The notes: a model not told the origin generated them from the letters alone. DNA of 43,488 nucleotides from a virus (IMGVR_UViG_3300037422_000481), one strand, 5' to 3'; positions 4,062-23,772 are shown, counted from the first letter of the stretch. Program-made: numbers and translations.

Positions 4062-6662
4062 CTATCCCTGCAGCTCCTTCAGCAGCGCGGCCCAGTTCTC
4101 GATCGGCGCGTCGGCGAACTTGTCGTAGGTGAGGCCGGCCGCCTCGAGCGCGGTCTTGGCGGCCGCGAGGCTGGCCGTGTCGGTCATGCGCAGGACGTCG
4201 GTCGTGCAGTCGCGCCCGTAGCGCATCGCGAGCCCGATCGGATCGCCGACCCAGTAGGAGTCGAGCGAGTTGTCCCAGGTGATGTCGAGGTAGTTGTAGT
4301 CGACGTGCACGGTCTGACCGGGCGTGATGGCCCCGCCGGACTTCCGCCGGATCCCTGGGAAGGTGCCGGCGCCGGTCGGCGCGCCGGTCGTGCTGAGTTC
4401 GTAGTCCGTGTTGAGCACGTAGGTCACGGTGCCGGCCGTGTTGGTAACAACGATCGAGGCCGTGTAGACGCGCGGGTTCGAGAGGTTCGTGTAGGTGACG
4501 AAGTCGCCCGACATGACGCGCGCCTCGTTCGCGATCGCGTACGTCCACGTGTCGGTCTTCGGGCAGATGTTCGTCGGCACGAAGTTGGCCCGCGTGGCGT
4601 AGCGCGTGGCGGGCGCGCCCGGGTAGGGCCCGAGCGGGACACGCTTCCACGGTCCGTTGTGGCCGGTGCCGGAGATCGTCTGGCCGTCGGCGTCGGTGTG
4701 CCAGCTCATGTCGCGCAGCCCGCGCGCGACGTCCGTGATCATGGCGCTGATCTGCCGGCCGCCCGGCAGAGCGAAGGCGGCCTCGCCGAAGGTCTCGCGG
4801 ATCGCTGCGAGCGCGATGATCCAGTAGAACTCGCCGAAGGTCTGCGCGACGAAGTAGGTCGCCGTCACGTTGTTGCCGAAGGGCGGCTGGTTGACGGCCT
4901 TCCCGCCCTCGAGATAGCTGAACGCTTGGAGCAGCCCGTTGGCCATCTGGGCGTTCTCGAGGTTGGTCAGGATGTTCTTCACGAACGCCTTGGCGAGATC
5001 GAGCCGGTTCGCGCGGCTGAAGATCGCGGTGAAGCAGTTCTGCACCGTGGCCCAGGCTTGGTCGCGCGTCCAGTTCATGCCGGCGTCAACGCGTGCGGCC
5101 GGATTGAGCACGCGCGTGGGCGCCCAGCTTCCCGGCCCGTACCACTGGATCATCTTCGTCATTTCGCCGTCGCCCTGCAGGTAGAGCAGCGTGGGCGGAT
5201 CGGCGGAGAGGTAGGCGAGGACCATGTTGTCGCGCATCGCCCGCAGCCAGTGGGCGCAGTCGATCCTATCGAACGCCCCGAAGCTCGAGTGCTGGCTGCC
5301 TGATGGTGCGGGGGTGGGGTCGTAGTCGATGGGGCCTGCAGGGCGTGGGTAGTTGTGCCAGCCCCACGGGTTGTCGCGCACGATTCCGCCCTGCTTCAAG
5401 AAGTTGCCGAAGCTATCCATCGCCCAGGGCGCGAAGCCGTTCGCGTCGAGGTTGTTCTCGGCGGTCATGGGTGCGCCGATCTTCTTGAAGGGTGTCCCCG
5501 CGCCGGCGGGGATGTCGCAGTAGGTGTTGCCGACGCCGCGCGAGCGGTAGCGCAGCTGGCGGAGCATGTGCAGCAGGATCCCCTCTGGCTGCCTCGACGC
5601 GATGATGCGCACGCCAGGGTGGAAGTCGATGCCCTCGCCGCTGGTGGCGCCGCCGTACGGGACGCCGTAGGCCGGCAAGAAGCGCGAGAGCGAGCGCCGG
5701 CCCGGCGTACCGTAGACCGGGTCGTTGGTCGGGCCGGCCACGTCCCCGATCAGGTAGCCCTTCTGCGCGTTGTAGGTCGCGAGCACGTTGGCGCCGAGGT
5801 TCGCGACGTGCGCGAGGCTGGGCATCTCGAGCCCGTGCGGCAGATAGCCGCCGCCCTGCCAGTTGTGGAAGAAGAGGCCGCGGTCGTAGCGCGGGATCTC
5901 GGGCGGCTCGGCCTCGGGATGCAGGATGATCCGGAAGAGCCGCTCGAAGCGCTGCGGCAGGATGTGGTTCCCGGCCGTCACGAGAGCGTCGAGCCCTGGG
6001 TTCATGATGAGGTCCGCGTCCAGGCGCGGCACCCACTTCCAGATCAGGCCTTCGACCTCGTCGCCGCGGACGAGGAACTTCAGCGCGCGGAAGAGGATGT
6101 CGGCGCGCGGGATGCCGTTGTGCCAGTTGATGTCGATCTCGATCTCGCGCGAGAAGGCGTTGATCGTGACCCACACGTGGAAGCCGCCGTAGCGCTTCGT
6201 GTGGTGGTGAGTCAGCCATGTGCGCATGTAGCGCCCGGAACGAACGACCGCCGTCGGCGGCGCGCTCAGGTTCACGGTCTCCGTGTCTCCGTGACCGATC
6301 ACGCGCAGCAGCGCGGAGTCGGGGCGGGCTATGAAGCTCTCCACCGCTCCGTAGAAGCGAGGCGTGAACCCCGCCGACGGGTCCAGCACCGGATCCAGGA
6401 ACACGGCCGGCTCGACGTATCCGTCGTGCACCTCGAAGCTCGCGGTGCCGGGCCCGAGCACCGTGATGAACTCCACGATGTTGAAGGTGCTCGTGCTCCC
6501 GGTGATGCGGTACTGCACCGGCCGCTCTTGCTCGGGCGGAAGCGCCGCGGGCACGAAGCACAAGTTGAGGTCGGTCGCGAGCGGGACGGGCGCGACGCCC
6601 CGGGCGCGGAAAGGCCGATCGGTGTAGGGGTTCGTGCCGGTCAGGGTCGCGACGATCGCCAT
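4062..6662 (-). CDS. Large hypothetical structural protein, 866 aa. Candidate tail spike or fibre.
   Basis: ATG 6662 is preceded by GGAGG with a 7-nt spacer. Internal start (MAIVATLTG...) of track ORF 4062..7592. The upstream part of that ORF is Arg/Gly-rich shadow of the methyltransferase region. No family recognised by eye. Confidence 0.7.
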   Translation of the reverse strand: MAIVATLTGTNPYTDRPFRARGVAPVPLATDLNLCFVPAALPPEQERPVQYRITGSTSTFNIVEFITVLGPGTASFEVHDGYVEPAVFLDPVLDPSAGFTPRFYGAVESFIARPDSALLRVIGHGDTETVNLSAPPTAVVRSGRYMRTWLTHHHTKRYGGFHVWVTINAFSREIEIDINWHNGIPRADILFRALKFLVRGDEVEGLIWKWVPRLDADLIMNPGLDALVTAGNHILPQRFERLFRIILHPEAEPPEIPRYDRGLFFHNWQGGGYLPHGLEMPSLAHVANLGANVLATYNAQKGYLIGDVAGPTNDPVYGTPGRRSLSRFLPAYGVPYGGATSGEGIDFHPGVRIIASRQPEGILLHMLRQLRYRSRGVGNTYCDIPAGAGTPFKKIGAPMTAENNLDANGFAPWAMDSFGNFLKQGGIVRDNPWGWHNYPRPAGPIDYDPTPAPSGSQHSSFGAFDRIDCAHWLRAMRDNMVLAYLSADPPTLLYLQGDGEMTKMIQWYGPGSWAPTRVLNPAARVDAGMNWTRDQAWATVQNCFTAIFSRANRLDLAKAFVKNILTNLENAQMANGLLQAFSYLEGGKAVNQPPFGNNVTATYFVAQTFGEFYWIIALAAIRETFGEAAFALPGGRQISAMITDVARGLRDMSWHTDADGQTISGTGHNGPWKRVPLGPYPGAPATRYATRANFVPTNICPKTDTWTYAIANEARVMSGDFVTYTNLSNPRVYTASIVVTNTAGTVTYVLNTDYELSTTGAPTGAGTFPGIRRKSGGAITPGQTVHVDYNYLDITWDNSLDSYWVGDPIGLAMRYGRDCTTDVLRMTDTASLAAAKTALEAAGLTYDKFADAPIENWAALLKELQG

Positions 6663-6685
6663 GGGAAAGCCTCCGGTGCCTTCGG

Positions 6686-7957
6686 TCAGGCTAAGAGGGT
6701 AGAGATATGCTGGGCTGAAGCAACGCGCGCCGACACGATCGCGCGCGCCACGGCCTCGGCAAGGGGCGGCGGCATGGCCATCCCGATCTGACTCCAGCGA
6801 GACCGCTTGGTCATGCCGACGAAGACCCACGACTCGGGGAACCCCTGAAGGATCTTCGCGGCGCGCTCGGAGAGGACGATCGCGTTCGGGTGCCCGCGCT
6901 GTGACTCGCCCCGGCGCCTGCCGGGCGGAGGCTGGCGCTCGTTCGTGCAGATGGTCGTCGAGGGGATGTCCCACGGCCACTCCATAGCACGCCCCCCCTG
7001 CGCGCCGCCTCTGTCCTTCGCGCACACGGTCTTCGAGGGTTCGTCGGGGGAGCTGATCGGGTGCTTCGCATCCAAGAGCAAGACCGCGCTCGCCGAGGAC
7101 TGCCCCGCTGCGGTCACGGTGAGGGCCGGCTCGTCGACACGCGAGGGAAGGTGGCCACCGTGCTTCCAGCGGCCGACGAGACGCGAGTCGATCGCAGCGT
7201 CGTTGCCCTCGCGCGTGATCGTGGGCGAGACATCGTCGCCGCCGACGGTGACGTGTCCCGACATCCTGGATCCGTTGCGCCGATCCGCATCGGTCCACCG
7301 CAGCCGCACGGGACGTCCGAGATCCGCCGGCGCGAGAGGAGACAGCGCCTGCCTGCACGTAACCCATGGCTTCAAGGGCTCGAACCCGGGGAACGGCGTC
7401 TGCGCCGCTTCGGTGGGCGAGCAGTGCGTGCGCACGGGCCAGGAGATGCACGGGCCGCCGCGATGGCCGAACCAAAAAGGCCTGACGCGGTGTTGCGGAA
7501 CCCCGAAGTCGGCCGCGTCCAAGCAGGCGTAGTCGTCGACGCAGTAGCCTTGCCGCGCCAGCCCGCCGATCACATCCTGCACGACACCCCACGAGGAAGC
7601 ATCCAGGAGCCCCGGTACGTTACCGATCAGGTACTCGCGCGGCTTCAGGAGCGCGATCAGCTCGGCTGTCTCGCGCAGCATGTCGCGTTCGTCGGCGAGG
7701 CCTTGGCGCTTGCCTGCGCGACTCCAGGGCGTGCAGGGCGGGTCTGCGACGAGCAGGTTGATCGGACCGGGGCTCCAACCGCCGCGCACCATGGCGAGGA
7801 GATCGTGCACGTCCATCTGGATCGGCGCGTGCCCGAGGTTCTGCGCGTAGCTGGCACAGGCATCCGGATCCTTGTCGAAGACGAAGTCGAAGCGGATGCC
7901 GGCGCGGCGGAAGCCCTCGGCCATGCCGCCGGAGCAGGAGAAGAGCTCGAGGTTCAC
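6686..7957 (-). CDS. DNA (cytosine-5) methyltransferase, 423 aa. No restriction partner is visible.
   Basis: Motif I is LFSCSGG (FxGxG). Motif IV is ADPPCTPWS (PC). Motif VI-like is IGNVPGL. Motif VIII is QHRVRPFW (QxRxR). Motifs IX-X are LQGFPESW...QIGMAMPPPLA. GTG 7957 overlaps the TGA of the upstream gene (GTGA). Confidence 0.85.
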   Translation of the reverse strand: MNLELFSCSGGMAEGFRRAGIRFDFVFDKDPDACASYAQNLGHAPIQMDVHDLLAMVRGGWSPGPINLLVADPPCTPWSRAGKRQGLADERDMLRETAELIALLKPREYLIGNVPGLLDASSWGVVQDVIGGLARQGYCVDDYACLDAADFGVPQHRVRPFWFGHRGGPCISWPVRTHCSPTEAAQTPFPGFEPLKPWVTCRQALSPLAPADLGRPVRLRWTDADRRNGSRMSGHVTVGGDDVSPTITREGNDAAIDSRLVGRWKHGGHLPSRVDEPALTVTAAGQSSASAVLLLDAKHPISSPDEPSKTVCAKDRGGAQGGRAMEWPWDIPSTTICTNERQPPPGRRRGESQRGHPNAIVLSERAAKILQGFPESWVFVGMTKRSRWSQIGMAMPPPLAEAVARAIVSARVASAQHISTLLA

Positions 7958-9726: not shown

Positions 9727-10197
9727 GGCGGCTTGTCCCTCACGCGCCTCCGGCGCTCGCGGAAGCGTCCAGTGGGGTCGTTCGAGAGTAGCATCTCTGG
9801 AAGAAACCCGGAAACGGAACCCTGCGGTCAGCACCACCCCACCCTCCGTGGCAGGTGAGTGCCAGGATGGCAGAGCGGTCGGTCTTTCCCGGGCTCGTGT
9901 TGCCTCTCGCTGTATGCCCGGACGCTGGCTTACCCCAGTCGCACCCCTACGCAGCGGGCGGCGCGTACAGCCTCCACGCCGCCAGTCGCCTCGAGGACCA
10001 GTCTCCGATTCCGAAGAATCTCCGGCGTGGTCCTGAAAACCCGGGGTAGCTCTTGCGCGGCACGCCCGCGACAGCCACCTTGGTACCGGCTGTTCATACA
10101 GGCGTTGGTCTACCGCCGCCAAGCAGACCAGTCAACGGGGGGCGCGCTTCTTCGGGGGCGCGCCCCCCTTGCCTTTCCAGGCACCTTCCAGGGTAGG
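9727..10197. other. Gene-free divergent region of 470 bp. It could be a control region, and it is a candidate structured plus-strand ncRNA.
   Basis: No frame shows the strong third-position G/C bias seen in the neighbouring genes. Several local hairpins are present (for example gattc-cgaa-gaatc near 10005). An intrinsic-terminator-like hairpin sits at its 3' end (10137-10178). I saw no tRNA T-loop consensus. Confidence 0.4.
10137..10178 (+). terminator. GC-rich hairpin plus T-rich tail, about 20 nt upstream of the GroES-like gene.
   Basis: An 11-bp perfect stem ggggggcgcgc (10137-10147) pairs with gcgcgcccccc (10158-10168). The loop is 10 nt. It is followed by ttgcctttcc. Confidence 0.5.
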
Positions 10198-10512
10198 ATG
10201 CCGCCCATGTTCCGACCGGACGAATGGGTGCCGCGGCTCGACTACCTGATCGTGGGCCTGGTGAGCGAGGTCCAGGAGCCCGGCCCGAACGACATCATCG
10301 TCCCGGACAGCGCCAAGGAGAAGGAGGAGTCGATGCGCGCGATCGTCTCCGCGGTTGGCCCGGGCCTGCAGTACGAGAGCGGCGCCCGCAAGCCGATCGA
10401 CCTCGAGCGCGGCGACGAGGTCCTGCTCCTCACCGACCAGGACTGCGTCGACATGGGCGGAGGGTACTACCTGGTGCGCGACCATCACGTGATCTCGAGA
10501 AAGAAGGGCTGA
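10198..10512 (+). CDS. groES: GroES-like co-chaperonin (Cpn10 family), about 104 aa.
   Basis: The sequence LDYLIVGLVSEVQEPGPNDIIVPDSAKEKEESMRAIVSAVGPG...RKPIDLERGDEVLL aligns by eye to the canonical GroES pattern (IIIPDTAKEKPQEG.VVAVGPG ... PLDVKVGD.VLF). ATG 10198 or 10207 could be the start. Confidence 0.8.
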   Translation: MPPMFRPDEWVPRLDYLIVGLVSEVQEPGPNDIIVPDSAKEKEESMRAIVSAVGPGLQYESGARKPIDLERGDEVLLLTDQDCVDMGGGYYLVRDHHVISRKKG

Positions 10513-15726: not shown

Positions 15727-15766
15727 GTTGCCGCGATCCCTAGCCGCGCCCTACGCTTGCGGCAAC
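15727..15766. promoter_or_regulatory. Inverted repeat (8-bp arms gttgccgc / gcggcaac) spanning the stop codon of the lipoprotein gene. It could be a terminator or an operator at the late/early boundary.
   Basis: Arms at 15727-15734 and 15759-15766. There is no U-tract on either side. A G9 run (15709-15717) lies just beside it. Confidence 0.3.
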
Positions 15767-16269
15767 GGGGCGGGGCCCGGGGCATCCGGGACTCCGCCCT
15801 CGACTTGGTTCGGAGGTTCGGGGGCTCGCGGGGTGGAATCCGCGGCTTGGTTGTCCCGGGCCTCGGCTCTGCCCAGCACCAGGCGCAGCTCGAGGAGGAC
15901 CAAGCGCGCTGCGATCGCGAGCCCCCGCACGCGCGCCTGCGTCTCGAGGTCGTCCGTCACCACCACGGTGATGGGCGCGAGGAGCTGCAGGGCCAGGTCG
16001 ATCGACTGGTAGAGGTCGAGCGTCTCGGCCCCGCCGGCCAGGACGAGCTCGAGGTTCGCGTCGACGACGCCGAGGGCCTCGTGGATCGGCTCGAGCGTCT
16101 CCGCCAGAGACGGATCGAACTCTCCGTACCCCGCGATCACGTCACCGATCGCGGTTCCGAAGATCTCAACCTGCGCATGGACCTCGACCAGCTCAAGTCG
16201 GTTGCCGGCCGGCGTGCTCCGGCACGCACAGACCAGGGCGGCCAGGGTTGCGATGGGCGTCGTCTTCAT
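15751..16269 (-). CDS. Putative lipoprotein, 172 aa.
   Basis: MKTTPIATLAALVCAC is a signal peptide with an imperfect lipobox. ATG 16269 overlaps the TGA of the upstream membrane protein (ATGA) and is preceded by AAAGGAA. Confidence 0.6.
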   Translation of the reverse strand: MKTTPIATLAALVCACRSTPAGNRLELVEVHAQVEIFGTAIGDVIAGYGEFDPSLAETLEPIHEALGVVDANLELVLAGGAETLDLYQSIDLALQLLAPITVVVTDDLETQARVRGLAIAARLVLLELRLVLGRAEARDNQAADSTPRAPEPPNQVEGGVPDAPGPAPLPQA

Positions 16270-16595
16270 GTGTTCCTTTCTTCGTGGGGTTTGACCTGCC
16301 GCCCGGGCGCCTCGGTGCGCTCCCACATGCGGGCGATGCGCACGTGTTCCTCCGCCAGCACCAGAACGTTGTCGAGTTTGAGGCCTTGCTGGGTCATCCG
16401 CTCCGTGAACAGCGTCTCGAGTCTGCTCACGAGAGCCGGCGTTGCCTCCTGGGCCGCGGCCATGCGGTCCATCGCCTGCGTGATCCGTCGCAGAAAGAAT
16501 CCGATCGTGACGATGCCGCTGATCACGACCGCCATCAGCAGCCAAGCGACGACGCCGACGTCCTTGACGAGGTCAGGGGACGGAAACTGTTCCAC
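16266..16595 (-). CDS. Single-pass membrane protein, about 109 aa.
   Basis: One hydrophobic helix (VGVVAWLLMAVVISGIVTIGFFL) is followed by a charged helical region. GTG 16595 is the assumed start. It overlaps the giant ORF end by 23 nt. Confidence 0.55.
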   Translation of the reverse strand: MEQFPSPDLVKDVGVVAWLLMAVVISGIVTIGFFLRRITQAMDRMAAAQEATPALVSRLETLFTERMTQQGLKLDNVLVLAEEHVRIARMWERTEAPGRQVKPHEERNT

Positions 16596-19500
16596 GCGCG
16601 GTCGTGTCTGCGCTGAGGCGCCGGATCGCCGAGATTCTCCGGAGCAGCTCACGCGCGTGCTCGCTCTCCGAGCTGCGCAGCTGCGGTCCGAGGAAGGAAC
16701 CCGAGGGACGATAGGGCTCGTAGCGGTTCCGGATCACCTGCGCGATCGTGTCGGCCGAGAGTGCTCCGCGCAAGCTGCGCATGATCTCGCTGTCCGTGAG
16801 GCCGAGCCCTCGCGCGGCGCTGAGGGCCGCCTGGAAGTCCTCCCACAGGCGGCTCCTGGCGCGCTCGGTCGCTCCGTACGCCTCGACCAGGTCCTCGTCA
16901 CTCACGCGGCCGCGCTTGCCGGCCACGCGCGAGAGGATCGAGGTCGCGTCCGCGCTCTGCCGTGCAAACTCGCGCGCCAGCTGGTGCAGGGCCTGGCGCG
17001 TGTCGACCGAGCTCATGCGCACGCCCGAGAGCATCGCGAGCGTCTCCACCCCCGGATCGTAGACGCGGCCGTACTGCGTCACCTCGCCCTGCAGGCCGCG
17101 CGCGATGCGCCGCAGGCTCGTCGCGGTGCCCGGCTCGACCGCCTTGCCGAGGTGCGCCAGGACGTCGCGCGTTTGGGCAAGCGTGGAGTCCTCGGGGTCG
17201 TAGATCTGGTTGTCGAACTCGTCGCGGTTGTACCAGAGGGCGTCGATCACGGCCTTGGTCGCGATCTCCTCGGAGAAGAACGGCGCCAGCACGTTGGCGG
17301 CGCCGCGGCGCGCAGCGTCCTCCCAGTCGTCGCCGCGCAGGAAGGCCATCAGCGGCTTCTTGAGGTAGCTGTGCGGGTCGAGGTAGCTGATGTCGACGTA
17401 GGTGCGCGCGCCTTCGCTGTTCTCCGCCAGCCACAGGAGATCCGAGTCACGCGACCACGGCGGAAGGAACTTGCGCGCCGCCTCGTCGTCGTCGTCGGTC
17501 ATGCCCACGAGGTAGCGCGCCAGCGCTGCGAGTCCCGCTGTCCAGCCGGCGGCGAGGAAGGTGCCGGCGAGCCGCCGTGCGCCGATCACGCGCACACCGC
17601 TCGTCTGGCTCCCGAGCTCGCTGCGGATCTGCATGATCGTGTTCTTCGCCGTGCGCATCACCTCCCACGGGAAGCTCACGAAGGTGCCGACCAGCGGGAA
17701 CTGGCGCAGCTGGCGCACCGCGCGCGGCACCATCGAGTAAGTCGGGAAGACGTTGCGCACGATCTCGGCGGTCTTGCGCTCGAGCTCGTCGGCGCTGAGG
17801 CGCGGCTCGGCCTTGCGGTAGGCCGCCTTCTCGTTCTCCCACGCGAAGAGCTTCCAGAAGTCGTCCTGCGCGCCGTACACGCGCGAGAAGAAGTGGAGGG
17901 CACGCACGCCCTTCGCCTTGGCGCTGTCCGGATCGAACATGGACGCATCGGCGACGTGCACGTCCTCGAGCAGCGCGCGCAACTCCTGGCCGTGTGGGCT
18001 CTCGTGGATCACGCCGAGCTCGACTGCGCGGCGCAGGTAGGCGCGCCAAGCCGGCCGCGAGAGCGCGTGGAACTCCGCGGCCATGCCCTTGAGCGCCGGA
18101 GCGAACTTGCCGGCGCGGAAGTAGCCTTGCGCCAGGGCGAAGCCGGTGTTGCCGAGGTTGTTCCGGACCGTGGTCATGACCGAGAGCACGGTCTTCGAGT
18201 ATTTCGCGATCCCGTTGATTGCGACCCACCAGCGCCACGCCGTGTCCAGGCTCGCCGGCTCCATCTGCTTGAAGGCGTCGCGGATCTCCGGCGTGGTGTA
18301 GAGCCCGTTCAGCGGCGCGTAGACGGCCGAGGCCTCACCCGCGATGCGCGCCTTCGCCTCGGGCGGGATGGCCGGATCGTCGCCCTCCCACAGGTAACGC
18401 CCGAGACCATCGGCACGTACGGCCGCCAGGAACTCGTGGTTCCCGATCGTGAAGGCCATCTTCGAGACCGAGCGCATGTAGTTGACGCGCGCGTCCTTGT
18501 ACTCGCCCCACAGCGCGCGGATCTCGACCGGGACGTTCTTCCTGCGCTTCATGAAGGAGAGATCCTTCGTCCCAAGCTTCGCCTGGGCCATGACGCGCAC
18601 CGGCCCGTCGGCGGCCTTGCCCTCGAAGAGCAGCCGCTCGATCACGGCCTCGAGCGCGCGCGGCTGCTGGCGCGCCTGCAGCACGCCGATCTCGCGCTGC
18701 ACGCGCGCCATGCGCCGCTGCGTCGAGCCAAGCCGCGCCAGGTCCTTCTTGGTGGGCTTGGACACGGCCTCGAGCGCAGCCTCGAGGCCGGAGAGCGCGC
18801 CCAGCAGTCGGCCAGCTTGGAACTCGCGACGGGAGTACTCCTGCGCGATGAAGGCCTTCGCCGCGTTGCGCGCTTGCACGGGAACCTTCTCGGCCCACTG
18901 CGGGTCGTCGAAGGCCCGGTAGCTGCGCGTCGCGTAGAGCTCGAGGTTCTTCGTGATCACCGGCACCAGGCGCTGGTCGACGACGCCGCTCGAGATCAGG
19001 CGCTGCGAGAGCTCCTTGATGTGGTTGCGCGCGGCCTGCACGGCGTTGCCTAGCTTGACTGGGAGCGCGCCGCGCGCGGTCGGGTCCTTGAGGGCGTCGT
19101 CGACCAGCGCGACCTGGGCGGGCGTCAGCTTCTTGCCAAAGGTCGCACGCAGCGCCGCGACCAGGTCGTGCTCGATCTCCTCGGCGCGCCGCATGTGCGC
19201 GTTGATCCAGCCATCGCGCCGGATCTTCGAGGCGAAGGGCCCCTCGGGCAGTCCTGCGGCCGCGGTGAAGTTGCGGCGCCAGCCTCTACCGAGCGAGAAG
19301 AGCACTGGAGCGCCGCCGCCTTCGCTGAACTCGTTCGCGATCTGTTGCTCGATGGGCAGGTTCTCTTCGGCAATGAAGGACGCTTGCCCACCCGCGAGAT
19401 CACGCGCTCGAGCCGCGAGACCCTCAAGCCGTGCCGCCACCCGCGTTGGCTTCTCCTTCAGCACGGAGCGCAAGATCGCGACGGCGGTCGCGTCGCTCTT

Positions 19501-22500
19501 CCATCCCACGTCGATACCAGGCATGACGGCTTGCCGCAGAACGTCAGCCAGCGGCTGATTCGTCTGCACGACCTCGGCGGCTCCCTGAGCCACGTGAAGC
19601 ATCGTGTCCGCGAACCCGGGCGCGCGCGCCTTCAACGTGACGAGCGCCGGAAGGGCCCGCAGTAAGACGTTCCGAGTCGCTGGTGGCGTCTCCACGAGCG
19701 TCCGCACGTCGCCGATCACGCTGCCGAGCAGTGCGTCCTCGATGACCTGCTTCCCGCTCTGAGTCGGGATGCCGCGCCGTGGATCGAAGAGCTCGGCCAT
19801 GTCCCGTTGTCCCAGCGCACCGGCCCGCACCATCGTCCGCGCGATGTCTCTCGCCTTGCCCGCGTCGCCGAGCGCGTCACGCAACGTGCCTTCGCCGATC
19901 ACGCCCGCAATCGAGCTCGCGACCTCGGCCGTGATTTTCGATCCGCGCGACACGGCTTCGGTCGTAGCGCCCTTCCCGGTCGTAAGCGACTCGTTCAGGA
20001 CGCGCGAGAGCTCGCCAGGTGCGCCTTCGCGGCCTGGCTCGACGATGCGCACCAGAACCGGATCGGCGATCCCGAGCGGTTCGATGCCGAAGCGCTTGGC
20101 CGCCTTGACCATGCCCGCGCGAATCTCTTCCGCTTGCGGACCGGCTCGTGAGTAGGCGAGCTGCATCCCCATCGTGCGCGCATTGCCCCCGAGCACGACG
20201 CCCTTGCTCGTCACGATCGGAGGACCGTCGACCGGCGAGGGTGTGTCAGTCGTGAGCAGCGACACCTTGGGAGCGTTGGCGATCGCTCGCACTGTCTCCC
20301 GCATCGGCGCGCCCTCAACGGGATCGTCGTAGGGGCGCTCGTTCAGGTCGCCGGCCGGGTTGCGGACGAACCCGCGTCGCACGTCATGGCTCGGCACGAG
20401 CTCGCTGGCTGCCACGATGGCATAGGTCACGGGCAGGGTACGACCCTCGGCGAGTTCGACCGTCGATGCCTCCCCGGAGCGAACGAGGATTTCCAGTTCT
20501 TGTCCAGGCTGGATCCGGCTACCCTTGAGGGGTAGTCTTCCCCCGACGATGCCGCTTCCTGATTCCTTTCCTGCTGGAACAACCTTCTGGGATTGCAGTG
20601 ACGTTCCCGTGGTGGCCACTCCAGGGCTGGTCTGCACGGCCTTCGATGTGCCGGACGGGCGGCGTTTCCCCTGCACGACGGTCGATAGCGACGGCGTGCC
20701 GATCTCGGAGGCGGCCTTCCGCGCCATGGTGCCCAAGGCCATCGCTCGACTGGCCGCGTTCCAAGCCGAGTCGTAGACCGCGCGCTGCTTGGCCTCGAGC
20801 TGGTCGATGCGGCGCTGCTGCTCACCCGTACGTGGGCCTCGAGCGCGCTGCAACCGCTGCATCTCTTCGTACTCGAGATGGAGGCGCTCCTTCGCCTCGA
20901 TCATTCTAGGCACGTTGATCTGCACCTCGGCGTGCAGGGCACCCAGGTCGAAGTGCATGAGTATGTCGCGGTAGCCGGTCGTCACGATCGGCGCCGTGAA
21001 GTCGCGGAACTTCACCGGCTCACCGAACCGTCTGCGCAACTCGACGACGGCCGCTTCGGCCTGCTCGAGCGTGTCCACCACGACGGTGCCGCGCAGGATG
21101 TCGCGCACTCGCGTCGCGTCGCCTTGATAGTCGTGCAGCGCTTTCACCAGCGCCCGAGCCATGCTCTTCACGCCAGGCAATAACGGCTTGTGGTGCGAGC
21201 CCACGGCCTTCGCCACCGCGCGAATGGAGCGGCCGAAAGAGGGCTCGCGCCTTCGCGCCGCAGCCAAGAGCTTGACCAACGTCCGCCGCGCCCGCAGTTC
21301 GACGGCGCGCAGATCCAGTTTCCGCGGCTTGCGCTCCTTGGGCGGCGCAGCGGCGAGGCGTTCACGCTTCTTCTTGCCGCGCTGCCGGAATCCGACCCGG
21401 CGCGGGCGCGCCTCCAGCCCTTCGAGCTCGAGCTCCATACGCGAAGGCTGTATGCGCCGCGTGACCTCCAGGCGCGGGGGCTTCGGCAGCTTCGCGAGGC
21501 GGCGCTCGAGCACGCGGACTCGAGCCTCCGCGCCTGAGCGACCACGGAGTGCGCGGATCTCGGCCTCGAGCTTCCCGCGCTTCTGGCGCACGCGCTTCGC
21601 CTGCGGGCCGGTGAGAGCCTGCTGCGAGGGGATCCAAGTTGGTTGAGGGATGCCCCGTTGCGCTTCGCGCGCGGCCGGAACGGCACGCTGGCTGGGCTCT
21701 ACAGCCCTCTGCCGACGGGGAAGTTCTCCACGGACAGGAATCCGGCGTCCCTCTTCCGGCCATGCGGCGCTCGTTCCTGCCGGTGCGGCAGGGCCGGCCG
21801 CAATGGCAGCCGCTGCCGGCCTTCTCGAGGGACGCCGGTAGCCCTCGATCGTGGCGAAGGCCTGCTGCACGAGCCGCGCGATCTCTGGGATGCGCGCCGG
21901 CTCGATGACGATCTCCTGGTCGGTCTCGGCGAGTTCGTCCCTGAGCTCTCGCAGCGCCTTCTCCGTCGACGTCTCCAGGTGCACGCCCGCGCGGCGCACC
22001 ATCCGGATCAGCGCGTCGATCATGCGCCGCAGGAGGCCGGGGCGCTCCGCAGCTTTGCGGAAGCGCTCGCCCTCGAAGAGGAGCCCGCCGCGCTCTTCCA
22101 GGTAGTTCGAGACCGCCTCTTCCGCCTGGCGCTCTGGGCTCAAGCCCTGGGCCTTGTAGCGTTCCCTGACGTCGAGCTCGGTCGCCGCGAAGCCCTCCGG
22201 ATCGACCTCCTTCAGATCGACGGCGAGCTGGTTCGCGGTGTCGACGGCCGTGTCGCCAGCCATGTCCTCGCGCACGACCTGGGCGAGGTGGTGGTAGGCC
22301 TCGTGGAGGAGCAGCCGCCGCTCGAGCACCTTGTCCGCGGCCGCGACGTCGAAGACCAGCGCGCGCTGCTCGGCCACGTAGCCGGCAGGGGCCGCTCCGC
22401 GATCGCCCTCTTCTTCCTCCGTCGGTTCGTCGGTGTACTCGACGAAGACCGCTTCAGCGCCCAGGCGGCGCGCGCGCTCGGCCACGCGAGCCTGAGCGGC

Positions 22501-23772
22501 GCTCCGGGGCTCCACCACGGCGCCCGTGCGCCCCTGGCGGCCTAGGAAGGTTGCAGCGGCGCGGCGGCCACCTGCGGACGCCGGCGCGACGTAGGGGATA
22601 TCGTCCGGTGCAGAGCCCGGTGATGCATCGGGCACAGCCACGTCGCCTTCAGCGGCTGCGAATAGTCCGCGTGGTGTGCCTCGACCTTCGAGCTCTTGCA
22701 CACGGCGCAGGGCAGCTTCTTCACCAAGCCCCTGCGCACGTAGACGCGCAAGTAGCTGCGCGCGATCGCCCTCCGGCGCGTCTCGCCCACTAACGGGTGT
22801 GCCTTCCTCCAGACCCTTGTCTTCGCGTTCTGACACGGACGGCAGTACCCGCCGACGCCCTTCGGCGTCCGCGCGCAGTTCGGGCACAGACCGTCCTTCC
22901 GCCTCATGTTGTGGAACAGTACCGCCCCCAACCTCCGCCGTCGAGGCCAGGGCCGAGAGGAGTCCGCCAGCGACCGCCGGCACCACCAGGGCCTCCCCGC
23001 TGGCCCAGCGCTGCATGAGTTCTTCCAGGGGTTTTCTTGCCTGGTCATGGCGCGAGATGTAGCGCGCCGTGACGTCGGCCAGCACCTGCTGGAAGTTCTC
23101 CTGCAGCACCTCTTCACCGGCCTCGAGCGCGGCCGTGCGGATGAAGCGCGAGAGCATGCGCCCGCTCGCCTTGTCGGCGAGCCCGAGCACGCGCCGCGCT
23201 TGGCCGGCGATCGGGACCGCCTCGCTCGCACCCTCGATCACGCCCAAGAGCGCCGCGAGGAGAGCCGCGTCCTGTGCTTCCTCGGACTCCGGGTCCTCGA
23301 AGGAAGCCAGCGCCTCCTTGTAGCGCGGCCCGACGGTCGCCAGCACGCCCGAGGTGCCAGCCATGAGCGGCGCCGCTACTGGCGCGCTCGCGCCGAGACC
23401 CACGAGGCCCGCCGTGCCGAGCGCGGTCGCGCCCAGGAATCCAAGGCCACTGCCGACGCCCTCGACCGTCTTCTCGAAGAGCGACACGGGCGCGGCGCCA
23501 GCACGCTCGCGTTGTTGCCCGAGCCAGCGCGCGGCGTCACCCATGCGCGGGATGCCCAGTACCTCGCCGGTCTCGGCCGCGCCCTGCACGACCCCGAGCG
23601 CGCCCCGCGCGAGACCTCCGACGATCGTGGGCGGGACGCGCTTGATCTTGGGGCCGAAGAGCCTCCGCAGCTCTTCCTCGAGCGGATCCTCTTCCACCTG
23701 CGCAGCAGGAGCATGCGCGCCGCTGAACAACGTGCGCAGCTCCTGCTCGAGCGGATCCTCCGCGTCCCTCAT
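16573..23772 (-). CDS. Formal 2,399-codon ORF for a giant multidomain (polyvalent-type) putative internal-virion or ejected protein. It may not be one continuous gene (see the nested HNH gene).
   Basis: ATG 23772 (MRDAEDPLEQELR...) overlaps the TGA of the upstream gene (ATGA). The first 398 codons of track ORF 16573..24966 are shadow of gene 23769-25247. Contents:
- Gly/Ala-rich hydrophobic segments (about 23340-23480).
- HEAYH (22291-22305).
- An RSH-like segment (20857-21180).
- A ParB-like segment (20090-20439).
- About 1,100 unassigned C-terminal residues.
Third-position G/C collapses in this frame across about 22545-22925. Confidence 0.55.
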   Translation of the reverse strand: MRDAEDPLEQELRTLFSGAHAPAAQVEEDPLEEELRRLFGPKIKRVPPTIVGGLARGALGVVQGAAETGEVLGIPRMGDAARWLGQQRERAGAAPVSLFEKTVEGVGSGLGFLGATALGTAGLVGLGASAPVAAPLMAGTSGVLATVGPRYKEALASFEDPESEEAQDAALLAALLGVIEGASEAVPIAGQARRVLGLADKASGRMLSRFIRTAALEAGEEVLQENFQQVLADVTARYISRHDQARKPLEELMQRWASGEALVVPAVAGGLLSALASTAEVGGGTVPQHEAEGRSVPELRADAEGRRRVLPSVSEREDKGLEEGTPVSGRDAPEGDRAQLLARLRAQGLGEEAALRRVQELEGRGTPRGLFAAAEGDVAVPDASPGSAPDDIPYVAPASAGGRRAAATFLGRQGRTGAVVEPRSAAQARVAERARRLGAEAVFVEYTDEPTEEEEGDRGAAPAGYVAEQRALVFDVAAADKVLERRLLLHEAYHHLAQVVREDMAGDTAVDTANQLAVDLKEVDPEGFAATELDVRERYKAQGLSPERQAEEAVSNYLEERGGLLFEGERFRKAAERPGLLRRMIDALIRMVRRAGVHLETSTEKALRELRDELAETDQEIVIEPARIPEIARLVQQAFATIEGYRRPSRRPAAAAIAAGPAAPAGTSAAWPEEGRRIPVRGELPRRQRAVEPSQRAVPAAREAQRGIPQPTWIPSQQALTGPQAKRVRQKRGKLEAEIRALRGRSGAEARVRVLERRLAKLPKPPRLEVTRRIQPSRMELELEGLEARPRRVGFRQRGKKKRERLAAAPPKERKPRKLDLRAVELRARRTLVKLLAAARRREPSFGRSIRAVAKAVGSHHKPLLPGVKSMARALVKALHDYQGDATRVRDILRGTVVVDTLEQAEAAVVELRRRFGEPVKFRDFTAPIVTTGYRDILMHFDLGALHAEVQINVPRMIEAKERLHLEYEEMQRLQRARGPRTGEQQRRIDQLEAKQRAVYDSAWNAASRAMALGTMARKAASEIGTPSLSTVVQGKRRPSGTSKAVQTSPGVATTGTSLQSQKVVPAGKESGSGIVGGRLPLKGSRIQPGQELEILVRSGEASTVELAEGRTLPVTYAIVAASELVPSHDVRRGFVRNPAGDLNERPYDDPVEGAPMRETVRAIANAPKVSLLTTDTPSPVDGPPIVTSKGVVLGGNARTMGMQLAYSRAGPQAEEIRAGMVKAAKRFGIEPLGIADPVLVRIVEPGREGAPGELSRVLNESLTTGKGATTEAVSRGSKITAEVASSIAGVIGEGTLRDALGDAGKARDIARTMVRAGALGQRDMAELFDPRRGIPTQSGKQVIEDALLGSVIGDVRTLVETPPATRNVLLRALPALVTLKARAPGFADTMLHVAQGAAEVVQTNQPLADVLRQAVMPGIDVGWKSDATAVAILRSVLKEKPTRVAARLEGLAARARDLAGGQASFIAEENLPIEQQIANEFSEGGGAPVLFSLGRGWRRNFTAAAGLPEGPFASKIRRDGWINAHMRRAEEIEHDLVAALRATFGKKLTPAQVALVDDALKDPTARGALPVKLGNAVQAARNHIKELSQRLISSGVVDQRLVPVITKNLELYATRSYRAFDDPQWAEKVPVQARNAAKAFIAQEYSRREFQAGRLLGALSGLEAALEAVSKPTKKDLARLGSTQRRMARVQREIGVLQARQQPRALEAVIERLLFEGKAADGPVRVMAQAKLGTKDLSFMKRRKNVPVEIRALWGEYKDARVNYMRSVSKMAFTIGNHEFLAAVRADGLGRYLWEGDDPAIPPEAKARIAGEASAVYAPLNGLYTTPEIRDAFKQMEPASLDTAWRWWVAINGIAKYSKTVLSVMTTVRNNLGNTGFALAQGYFRAGKFAPALKGMAAEFHALSRPAWRAYLRRAVELGVIHESPHGQELRALLEDVHVADASMFDPDSAKAKGVRALHFFSRVYGAQDDFWKLFAWENEKAAYRKAEPRLSADELERKTAEIVRNVFPTYSMVPRAVRQLRQFPLVGTFVSFPWEVMRTAKNTIMQIRSELGSQTSGVRVIGARRLAGTFLAAGWTAGLAALARYLVGMTDDDDEAARKFLPPWSRDSDLLWLAENSEGARTYVDISYLDPHSYLKKPLMAFLRGDDWEDAARRGAANVLAPFFSEEIATKAVIDALWYNRDEFDNQIYDPEDSTLAQTRDVLAHLGKAVEPGTATSLRRIARGLQGEVTQYGRVYDPGVETLAMLSGVRMSSVDTRQALHQLAREFARQSADATSILSRVAGKRGRVSDEDLVEAYGATERARSRLWEDFQAALSAARGLGLTDSEIMRSLRGALSADTIAQVIRNRYEPYRPSGSFLGPQLRSSESEHARELLRRISAIRRLSADTTARGTVSVP
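20090..20439 (-). other. ParB-N-terminal-like (DdrB-ParB type) segment inside the giant ORF.
   Basis: YAIVAASELVPSHD...NERPYDD...GPPIVTSKGVVLGGNARTMGMQLAY matches the ParB-like layout (...SHD...PR.R...GxPIV...xxGNxRxxA) seen in polyvalent proteins of phages and plasmids. By-eye assignment. Confidence 0.45.
20857..21180 (-). other. RelA/SpoT-homologue (RSH) synthetase-like nucleotidyltransferase segment inside the giant ORF.
   Basis: The segment reads GVKSMARALVKAL...VRDILRGTVVV...TTGYRDILMHF...AEVQINVPRMIEAKERLHLEYEE. It parallels the RSH synthetase motifs in the same order: RxKxxxSxxxK, DxxGxRxI, GYxSxH, EhQIRT, HxxYK. Confidence 0.55.
22291..22305 (-). other. HExxH zinc-metallopeptidase-type motif inside the giant ORF (LLLHEAYHHLAQ).
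   Basis: The codons cac gag gcc tac cac were read on the minus strand. The preceding ~70 residues (AEAVFVEYTD...GYVAEQRALVFDV) resemble the start of a zincin-like domain. This is motif-level evidence only. Confidence 0.45.
22542..22907 (-). CDS. HNH-type endonuclease-like zinc-finger protein, 121 aa. It is encoded out of frame inside the giant ORF and may be a mobile homing-endonuclease cassette.
   Basis: MRRKDGLCPNCARTPKGVGGYCRPCQ...KKLPCAVCKSSKVEAHHADYSQPLKATWLCPMHHRALH matches the common phage HNH pattern C-x2-C...(E)AHH-x-DY-x-x-PL-x-x-x-WLC-x-x-x-H-x-x-x-H. This is the C-terminal part of track ORF 22542..23231. Third codon positions are almost all G/C in this frame, but mixed in the giant-ORF frame over the same bases. 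Confidence 0.7.
   Translation of the reverse strand: MRRKDGLCPNCARTPKGVGGYCRPCQNAKTRVWRKAHPLVGETRRRAIARSYLRVYVRRGLVKKLPCAVCKSSKVEAHHADYSQPLKATWLCPMHHRALHRTISPTSRRRPQVAAAPLQPS

Follow-up and report, generated by a model that had tools for sequence, protein, structure and literature searches.

Among enzymes of the RelA/SpoT homologue (RSH) fold, two groups of (p)ppApp toxins stand closest to the locus considered here: Tas1 (also Apk1), a type VI secretion effector of Pseudomonas aeruginosa, and the Apk2 toxins of prophages, which are fused to MuF. Both are encoded with Tis1-like binding proteins and/or hydrolases of the Aph/small alarmone hydrolase (SAH) kind (PMC10083569). It is thus already known that Apk toxins can ride on phage head proteins, and RelA/SpoT domains have been on record in phage polyvalent proteins since 2017. 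Here, we consider a domain of this type in the viral sequence IMGVR_UViG_3300037422_000481, a stretch of 43,488 nucleotides that we call the window, where it lies in the interior of a single predicted protein of 2399 amino acids encoded on the minus strand. We think it reasonably probable that this is a Tas1/Apk-type RSH enzyme housed in a polyvalent protein, which would be ejected with the DNA and would make (p)ppApp early in infection.

The RSH domain and its catalytic residues

The preliminary description of the window had singled out five RSH motif strings and assigned them to positions 20857-21180. All five are present verbatim in the translation of one minus-strand open reading frame (ORF), between 20863 and 21171: VKSMARALVKA at 21139-21171, RDILRGTVVV at 21076-21105, GYRDILMHF at 20950-20976, AEVQINVPRM at 20902-20931 and HLEYEE at 20863-20880. 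Read on the plus strand, 20857-21180 yields a translation free of the motifs, and that frame was rejected as the coding one. As to extent, the interval does contain the motifs but is narrower than the folded domain, which in the AlphaFold2 (AF2) model occupies roughly 20707-21279 (minus strand; residues 832-1022 of the protein); this Tas1/Apk-like RSH synthetase (toxSYNTH) domain includes all five strings, and a conserved tail runs onward from it to ~20563. By ORF calling and translation, the gene of the putative polyvalent virion protein covers 16573-23772 on the minus strand (stop codon 16573-16575). Its start is the ATG at 23772, which shares the letters ATGA with the stop codon of the preceding gene, and a frame analysis of G+C content at third codon positions (GC3) assigns the 5' part of the stop-to-stop ORF to a different gene in a different frame. 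The identical 2399-residue product was called on an independent Logan contig, SRR13020435_40943 (41.5 kb).

Sequence, profile, fold and residues agree on the identity of the domain, and we therefore regard it as almost certainly of the RSH fold. When the 191-residue segment was compared with all PDB sequences by phmmer, a single match was returned, namely Tas1 (6OX6; E = 2.6e-9 over 120 residues), to which the domain is ~25% identical. A 44-sequence family alignment, A1, was used both as a profile against the PDB and for AF2. With this profile Tas1 again came first (6.8e-25), followed by the exported synthetase SaEAS (7e-6), Escherichia coli RelA (1.6e-3) and RelSeq (0.012), with marginal scores for RelP and RelQ. 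The AF2 model built from the 44 sequences reaches a predicted local distance difference test (pLDDT) of 95.7 and a predicted template-modelling (TM) score of 0.88, whilst the model from the single sequence was uninformative (pLDDT 51). Searched with Foldseek, the former retrieved 47 chains at E<=1e-3, every one of them an RSH synthetase domain (Tas1, SaEAS, RelQ, RelP, Rel, RelA and SpoT), with Tas1 first and TM-scores of up to 0.70; FaRel2 (8PU3) took rank 48. Chance resemblance is far outweighed by these E-values, and the RSH assignment made earlier stands, with Tas1 the best match by sequence, by profile and by Foldseek and with the catalytic residues in place. A word-indexed homologue search with the single segment found no homologues, and PHROGs gave no RSH family, its matches being the virion family at the C-terminus and two others that have no assigned function.

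The catalytic residues were followed in a 148-sequence family alignment, with invariant columns defined on the 44 sequences of A1. All 13 invariant columns hold the consensus residue here, namely K869, R873, K877, D891, R894, G933, Y934, R935, D936, E949, H965, Y968 and Y1000 (K38, R42, K46, D60, R63, G102, Y103, R104, D105, E118, H134, Y137 and Y169 in the numbering of the segment, to which 831 is added for the protein), and these columns are conserved in 143 to 148 of the 148 sequences. K869, R873, K877 and D891 align with K305, R309, K313 and D327 of Tas1, and the roles of the basic Syn1 residues in binding the donor ATP and of the Syn2 Asp in binding Mg2+ are taken over from R64, K66, K74, R77 and D90 of FaRel2 (PMC11782079). 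D891 (segment D60; codon 21100-21102, minus strand), which also aligns with D275 of E. coli RelA and is present in 148/148 sequences, is the predicted Mg2+-binding aspartate of Syn2, by analogy with the catalytic D90 of FaRel2 (PMC11782079). The predicted catalytic glutamate of Syn4 is E949 (segment E118; codon 20926-20928, minus strand), the counterpart of Tas1 E382, SaEAS E182 and RelA E335; two residues further on, Q951 matches Tas1 Q384, SaEAS Q184 and RelA Q337, and the two are found in 148/148 and 146/148 family sequences, respectively. G933-Y934 align with RelA G318-Y319, Y934 being the G-loop tyrosine (Syn3), and the His..Tyr pair of Syn5, H965 and Y968, corresponds to RelA H354 and Y357.

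The alignment, guided by a hidden Markov model (HMM), matches the published numbering of Tas1 once a 21-residue offset of the PDB chain is allowed for, and R894 is in it the equivalent of Tas1 R330. Aligning the segment to Tas1, as the preliminary description had proposed, thus recovers equivalents of R330, E382 and Q384 from the list of Tas1 catalytic residues (PMC12691689). The same catalytic residues are held by an orthologue with 52% identity. We consider the domain likely to be catalytically competent, judging by these residues, and the word "degenerate", which had been applied to its motifs, does not suit them: within a Tas1-like subfamily, motifs of this form are the norm.

The carrier protein, its proposed delivery and the possible product

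On its domain content, the carrier is a phage polyvalent protein, i.e. one large polypeptide that combines unrelated conflict-type domains. Downstream of the RSH domain lies a ddrB-like ParB superfamily domain (20044-20448, minus strand; residues 1109-1243; Pfam PF18763, E = 7.3e-16, 58.8 bits against a cut-off of 27.6), and towards the C-terminus a predicted virion-protein module (16771-18591, minus strand; residues 1728-2334) matches phrog_22602, "virion structural protein", at E = 2.3e-55. By tblastn, this module finds annotated structural proteins of Cellulophaga phages phi13:2, phi18:3 and phi19:3 and of Pelagibacter phage HTVC027P, as well as the C-terminal part of a protein annotated as an "ADP-ribosyltransferase" in Pseudoalteromonas phage Y3; the C-terminal 908 residues had no match in the PDB. 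In Y3 (vB_Pun_Y3), the module sits on a 1027-residue "ADP-ribosyltransferase" that adjoins a separate DdrB-ParB protein of 3421 residues, so that one scaffold bears different effector domains in different phages. The 52%-identical orthologue of the whole protein (P0001, encoded at locus L008) contains an additional RadC/JAB insert. Among 27 full-length relatives, the polyvalent domains recognised were ddrB-ParB in 13, RadC in seven, LPD38 in six and ART-PolyVal in four, together with InPase, LPD22, LPD3, SNF2 and Eco57I domains.

The remaining parts of the carrier are less readily classified. Its N-terminal region holds three hydrophobic segments rich in Gly and Ala (22930-23457, minus strand; residues 106-139, 168-190 and 257-281; Kyte-Doolittle peaks of 1.4-1.8 at window 19), which are kept in P0001 and may insert into a membrane. 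Further along, LLLHEAYHHL (22285-22314, minus strand; residues 487-496) has the form of an HExxH(H) motif, with HEAYHH at residues 490-495 and LVLHEAQHHL as its counterpart in P0001. In searches of this region against peptidase families there was no Pfam match and, in the PDB, only a weak and unrelated match ("SmPolE"), and hhalign against the DUF4157 region of one relative (P0055) gave a probability of 0.7%; a zincin-type site, perhaps that of the processing peptidase typical of polyvalent proteins, is a lead to follow and nothing firmer. A very basic, Pro/Ala-rich linker (21280-21855, minus strand; roughly residues 640-831) precedes the RSH domain; it has no family match, and residues 640-860 contain 58 Arg and Lys to 20 Asp and Glu. 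The layout would be one of beads on a string, with the RSH module as a globular bead between flexible linkers.

How would such an enzyme reach its target? That the protein is packaged in the virion and delivered appears probable, if by no means secure, on homology. The idea that the domain is embedded in an ejected protein holds good for the embedding, as the domain is internal to a protein with a virion-homologous C-terminus; the ejection is plausible. The giant gene is the last of the late block, which begins at the large terminase. In the scenario we favour, the protein would be made late, packaged in the particle, and enter the host along with the DNA. The RSH module would then take the beta-gamma pyrophosphate from ATP and attach it to an adenine nucleotide at the 3'-OH, making (p)ppApp and draining ATP and ADP, and host metabolism and ATP-dependent defences would be struck in the first minutes of infection, beside the action of the ParB-type domain. 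The steps we infer here are catalytic activity, the acceptor nucleotide, packaging, ejection and the physiological effect.

Alternatively, the enzyme could be active late in the producing cell, or in antagonism between a lysogen and its competitors after lysis, with no ejection and with the protein perhaps staying in the particle. Ejection is, after all, a step that we infer, many relatives are fused to a portal, which is not known to exit the capsid, and the role of the MuF-fused Apk2 toxins is likewise unresolved (PMC10083569). Yet hydrophobic segments near the N-terminus and a layout of beads on a string suit an ejected protein, polyvalent proteins have been argued to act on entry (PMC5512222), and cytoplasmic activity before packaging would, with no immunity, drain ATP during assembly; we regard this alternative as rather doubtful.

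With regard to the product, we hold the case for (p)ppApp to be about evenly balanced, on the evidence of sequence. Signatures have been proposed that separate adenosine from guanosine kinases: Apk enzymes have R-x-T in Syn2, G-x-N in Syn3 and a Syn4 without Arg, and RSH enzymes have S-x-H in Syn3 (PMC12226406). Here, Syn2 (D-I-L-R-G-T) and Syn4 (E-V-Q-I-N, no Arg) are of the adenosine type, and Syn3 (G-Y-R-D-I-L) is particular to its own family, being neither the G-x-N of Apk nor the S-x-H of RSH. A swap of signatures failed to convert the specificity of Apk2 (PMC12226406), so the signatures do not determine specificity and the product cannot be read from the sequence.

Synthesis of (p)ppGpp, or of both alarmones, would bring about a shutdown of host transcription and translation resembling the stringent response, rather than ATP depletion. 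SaEAS (8VX3) comes second to Tas1 in both the profile and the fold search, the same role was proposed by Iyer et al. for the RelA/SpoT domains of polyvalent proteins (PMC5512222), the Syn3 G-Y-R-D fits neither signature (PMC12226406), and the MESH1-like hydrolases that accompany some relatives are of a kind that cleaves both alarmones (PMC10083569). All the same, we think (p)ppGpp an unlikely product, as Tas1 scores ~60 bits above any (p)ppGpp synthetase by profile, and as R-x-T in Syn2 and the lack of Arg after E-x-Q-I in Syn4 point to an adenosine kinase, weak predictors though these signatures are (PMC12226406).

Could the acceptor instead be the 3'-CCA end of tRNA, as for FaRel2, CapRel and PhRel2, with host translation blocked as the outcome? 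The toxSYNTH fold is common to these enzymes, FaRel2 is among the Foldseek matches, and a strongly basic linker stands ahead of the domain. Kurata and colleagues are also said to have reported, in 2021, that SAH-type hydrolases can reverse the pyrophosphorylation of tRNA. Against this, FaRel2 is just 48th by fold, neither FaRel2 nor CapRel was detected by the sequence profile, no antitoxin domain or gene of the pZFD type was found, and a total block of translation would halt the expression of the phage's genes too. Transfer to tRNA thus seems improbable to us, and an adenine nucleotide remains the acceptor we prefer.

Family, partner hydrolases and the conserved tail

The domain belongs to a large family. 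When 1.84 billion representatives were searched exhaustively with HMMER, 1370 passed E<=1e-3, and 342 passed E<=1e-10. The family therefore has at least 1370 clusters at 50% identity, and the closest of these proteins has 2805 residues and is 58% identical in the RSH region. A strict DNA pattern, GYRD-x12-E.Q.N, recovered 70 IMG/VR loci, 70/70 of them true family members; with the whole 2399-residue protein as the query no IMG/VR relative was found, and with the family consensus one locus only. Three architectures recur. The first consists of proteins of ~300 residues with a C-terminal RSH domain, and the second of fusions of 760-792 residues in which a Phage_portal_3 portal is followed by a C-terminal RSH domain, as in the single ORFs at 228-2510 of L011 (plus strand), 666-2963 of L012, 1151-3475 of L016 and 6579-8954 of L033 (all minus strand). 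The third comprises large proteins of 1000-3700 residues with an internal RSH domain. Other family members are encoded immediately downstream of a portal gene or are themselves portal fusions, which places the domain in phage heads. Among cultured phages the family is found only in Bordetella phage PHB04, and it is nearly absent from plasmids.

Several of these relatives are accompanied by a hydrolase. In PHB04, the order is portal, a 493-residue protein with a C-terminal RSH domain, a 69-residue ORF and an HD-domain hydrolase; a JGI metagenome phage contig likewise encodes the RSH protein immediately downstream of the portal, with an HD_4 gene at a distance of 2 kb. It is MESH1 that the partner hydrolases resemble most (1e-30 to 1e-36), their similarity to Aph1 being weak. 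A nearby MESH1-like alarmone hydrolase is what one would expect if the product of these enzymes is a toxic pyrophosphorylated nucleotide. Considering the IMG/VR loci (L009-L079) with at least 2.5 kb downstream, hydrolase genes accompany 15/25 C-terminal forms and 0/17 internal forms (Fisher p 4e-5, a value that ignores relatedness, many of these loci being near-identical).

At the locus itself, a two-sequence SAH HMM run against the six-frame translation of the window found no HD-type (HD_4/SAH) hydrolase (best E 1.3), and tblastn with the PHB04 hydrolase, its 69-residue neighbour and its phosphatase likewise gave nothing in the window. The eight flanking ORF products had no Tis1- or antitoxin-like match in the PDB, which leaves room for a novel immunity protein, the neighbouring genes had no Pfam matches, and no pZFD-type antitoxin domain or gene was found. 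The preliminary description had seen no adjacent immunity gene, and this is upheld by the lack of an HD-type hydrolase in any frame and of a Tis1 or antitoxin match for the eight flanking products. The related locus L008 has no SAH either.

A conserved low-complexity tail of ~55 residues directly past the RSH domain (20563-20730, minus strand; residues 1015-1070; tail HMM E = 6.5e-16) has the consensus ...SSETGAPLRRAES.GN.RG...SQA...ETGTPSTSKNSVP.GN. Of 150 family representatives, 110 have this tail, in each case adjoining the RSH domain and nowhere else in the protein. In the 304-residue forms, the TAA codon that ends the RSH gene is immediately followed, in frame, by a tail-like sequence (L010, 5931-6056, minus strand; likewise in the near-identical loci L021, L027, L044, L057 and L062), which could be left over from a longer ancestor or could point to read-through. 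The tail, or else the context of the precursor, might explain how a fast enzyme that consumes ATP is tolerated during assembly when there is no immunity. A bolder proposal, which we rate as unlikely, is that the tail acts in cis, by autoinhibition or processing, and replaces the immunity in trans (SAH or Tis1) that goes with the C-terminal and portal-fused forms, which have no tail; the RSH module would then be self-contained and activated by injection, silent in assembly and switched on only after ejection or cleavage. Bolder still, the acceptor might not be ATP or ADP but a nucleotide of host immune signalling whose 3'-OH is free.

It is at this point that the (p)ppApp scenario has to be weighed, and a number of observations count against it. 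Pfam RelA_SpoT (PF04607) gives no match to the whole protein or to the isolated segment, even at E<=10, and NCBIfam has no match to the domain. Where Tas1 has N370, the residue here is L938 (K in 78, N in 40 and L in 16 of the 148 family sequences), and the next residue but one is His, a position at which 94/148 sequences have Asn; with two acceptor-site differences from Tas1 and from the family majority, activity or specificity may differ. For Tas1 K353 the alignment offers an ambiguous counterpart, the candidate being R923 (basic in 140/148). The absence of a recognisable immunity or hydrolase gene is unusual for what would be a very fast toxin in the producing cell. Since the partner hydrolases of relatives are MESH1-like and promiscuous, they do not identify the product. 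Depletion of ATP at infection would harm the phage too, and the virion location of the protein is drawn from homology and annotation.

Three of these points, namely the failure of Pfam, the two atypical acceptor-site residues and the missing immunity gene, would also suit a module for structure or binding that has no catalytic activity, or a chance resemblance. Set against them, 13/13 invariant columns are kept, the Mg-binding aspartate and the catalytic glutamate among them, E-values reach 1e-25 with a confident prediction of the RSH fold, and the same residues recur in the 52%-identity orthologue, so that a dead or spurious domain is highly improbable. As for Pfam, the RelA_SpoT family search that had been proposed as a check gives no match with the window's sequence, but the PHB04 homologue (tblastn 4e-14) does pass (30.6 bits against a gathering score of 27), and PF04607 is carried by 3/18 database relatives in one set and by 1/27 in another. 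Because Pfam misses the domain, to decide by that search alone would be to discard the RSH assignment wrongly. We retain an active enzyme of the Tas1/Apk type as the preferred reading.

The surroundings of the gene are those of a phage genome. The window encodes a large terminase (4.5e-33), a RecE-like exonuclease and structural or virion protein families, nearly all of its genes lie on the minus strand, and its G+C content is 68%, with the sequence being that of an environmental phage; 20 kb of it found no match among cultured phages by megablast. A GroES-like co-chaperonin is encoded at 9859-10512 on the plus strand (Pfam Cpn10, E = 1.9e-8). A 423-residue gene at 25816-27087 of L003 (~6686-7957 in the window, minus strand) has a precomputed Pfam DNA_methylase (C-5) match; a long stop-to-stop ORF at 4062-7619, in a different frame, overlaps it with its 5' end. 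Two small genes lie directly downstream of the giant gene, the first (16266-16652, minus strand) with an N-terminal transmembrane helix and the second (15751-16545, minus strand) encoding a lipoprotein-like protein with the signal MKTTPIATLAALVCAC; they resemble an i-spanin/o-spanin lysis pair, which hints at a host of the Gram-negative type. The species genomes of GTDB yielded a single relative, L008, a contig of phage size (CAZMRX010000003.1, 44.8 kb) binned with an uncultured Acidobacteriota metagenome-assembled genome, a weak pointer to Acidobacteriota as the host.

Comparison with known systems

If the domain is active, this would be a virion-borne enzyme, making alarmones or depleting ATP, from a very large and almost wholly unannotated family, and phage particles would constitute a major route for (p)ppApp-type toxins, beside type VI secretion and toxin-antitoxin modules. 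Pfam, NCBIfam and PHROGs miss the domain, and the family alignment presented here offers a usable profile. The occurrence of hydrolases with C-terminal forms only, and of the tail with internal forms only, bears on how phages escape self-poisoning in assembly. The size of the Tas1-like subfamily and its near-total lack of annotation may be new, as may the RSH-specific tail, the portal-RSH fusions and the dichotomy of hydrolase and tail; we met no mention of either set in the part of the literature covered by our check.

How, then, does the locus compare with what has been described? With the toxSAS enzymes FaRel, FaRel2, CapRel and PhRel, the domain has in common the toxSYNTH fold, the basic residues of the donor site, the Mg-binding Asp and the G-loop Tyr (PMC11782079). 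Unlike them, it is not part of a bicistronic or fused toxin-antitoxin pair, no pZFD, Tis1-like or SAH antitoxin was found, and its similarity to them is far below that to Tas1.

Tas1 is the best match by sequence, profile and fold, and the two share Syn1 K-S..R...K, Syn2 D-x-x-R-x-T, the G-Y loop and E-x-Q-[VI]-N. They differ in Syn3 (G-Y-R-D-I-L here, G-Y-S-G-V-N in Tas1), and Tas1 has an insertion of ~25 residues ahead of the His..Tyr motif. Neither a PAAR domain, nor a type VI context, nor a Tis1 gene was found here; in place of a secreted effector there is a domain internal to a 2399-residue phage protein, followed by a family-specific tail.

The MuF-fused Apk2 toxins of prophages come closer in setting, as they too place an Apk-type domain on a carrier associated with the phage head (PMC10083569, PMC12226406). 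The window protein departs from them in that MuF, like PAAR, was not detected in it by Pfam, PHROGs or NCBIfam, nor was MuF in PHB04, in that its RSH domain is internal and not C-terminal, and in that no immunity gene of the hydrolase or binding type was found; the partners of relatives are, moreover, MESH1-like and not Aph1-like.

Finally, the polyvalent proteins with RelA/SpoT and DdrB-ParB domains described by Iyer, Burroughs, Anand, de Souza and Aravind in 2017 (PMC5512222) provide the nearest parallel to the carrier as a whole. Their usual zincin peptidase (MPTase) has no profile match here, and the acquisitions reported there, in prophages of Spirochaetes and Epsilonproteobacteria, differ in setting from an environmental phage of 68% G+C. 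What the two have in common is the pairing of the same domains within one protein, and the same proposed role as an effector delivered together with the DNA.

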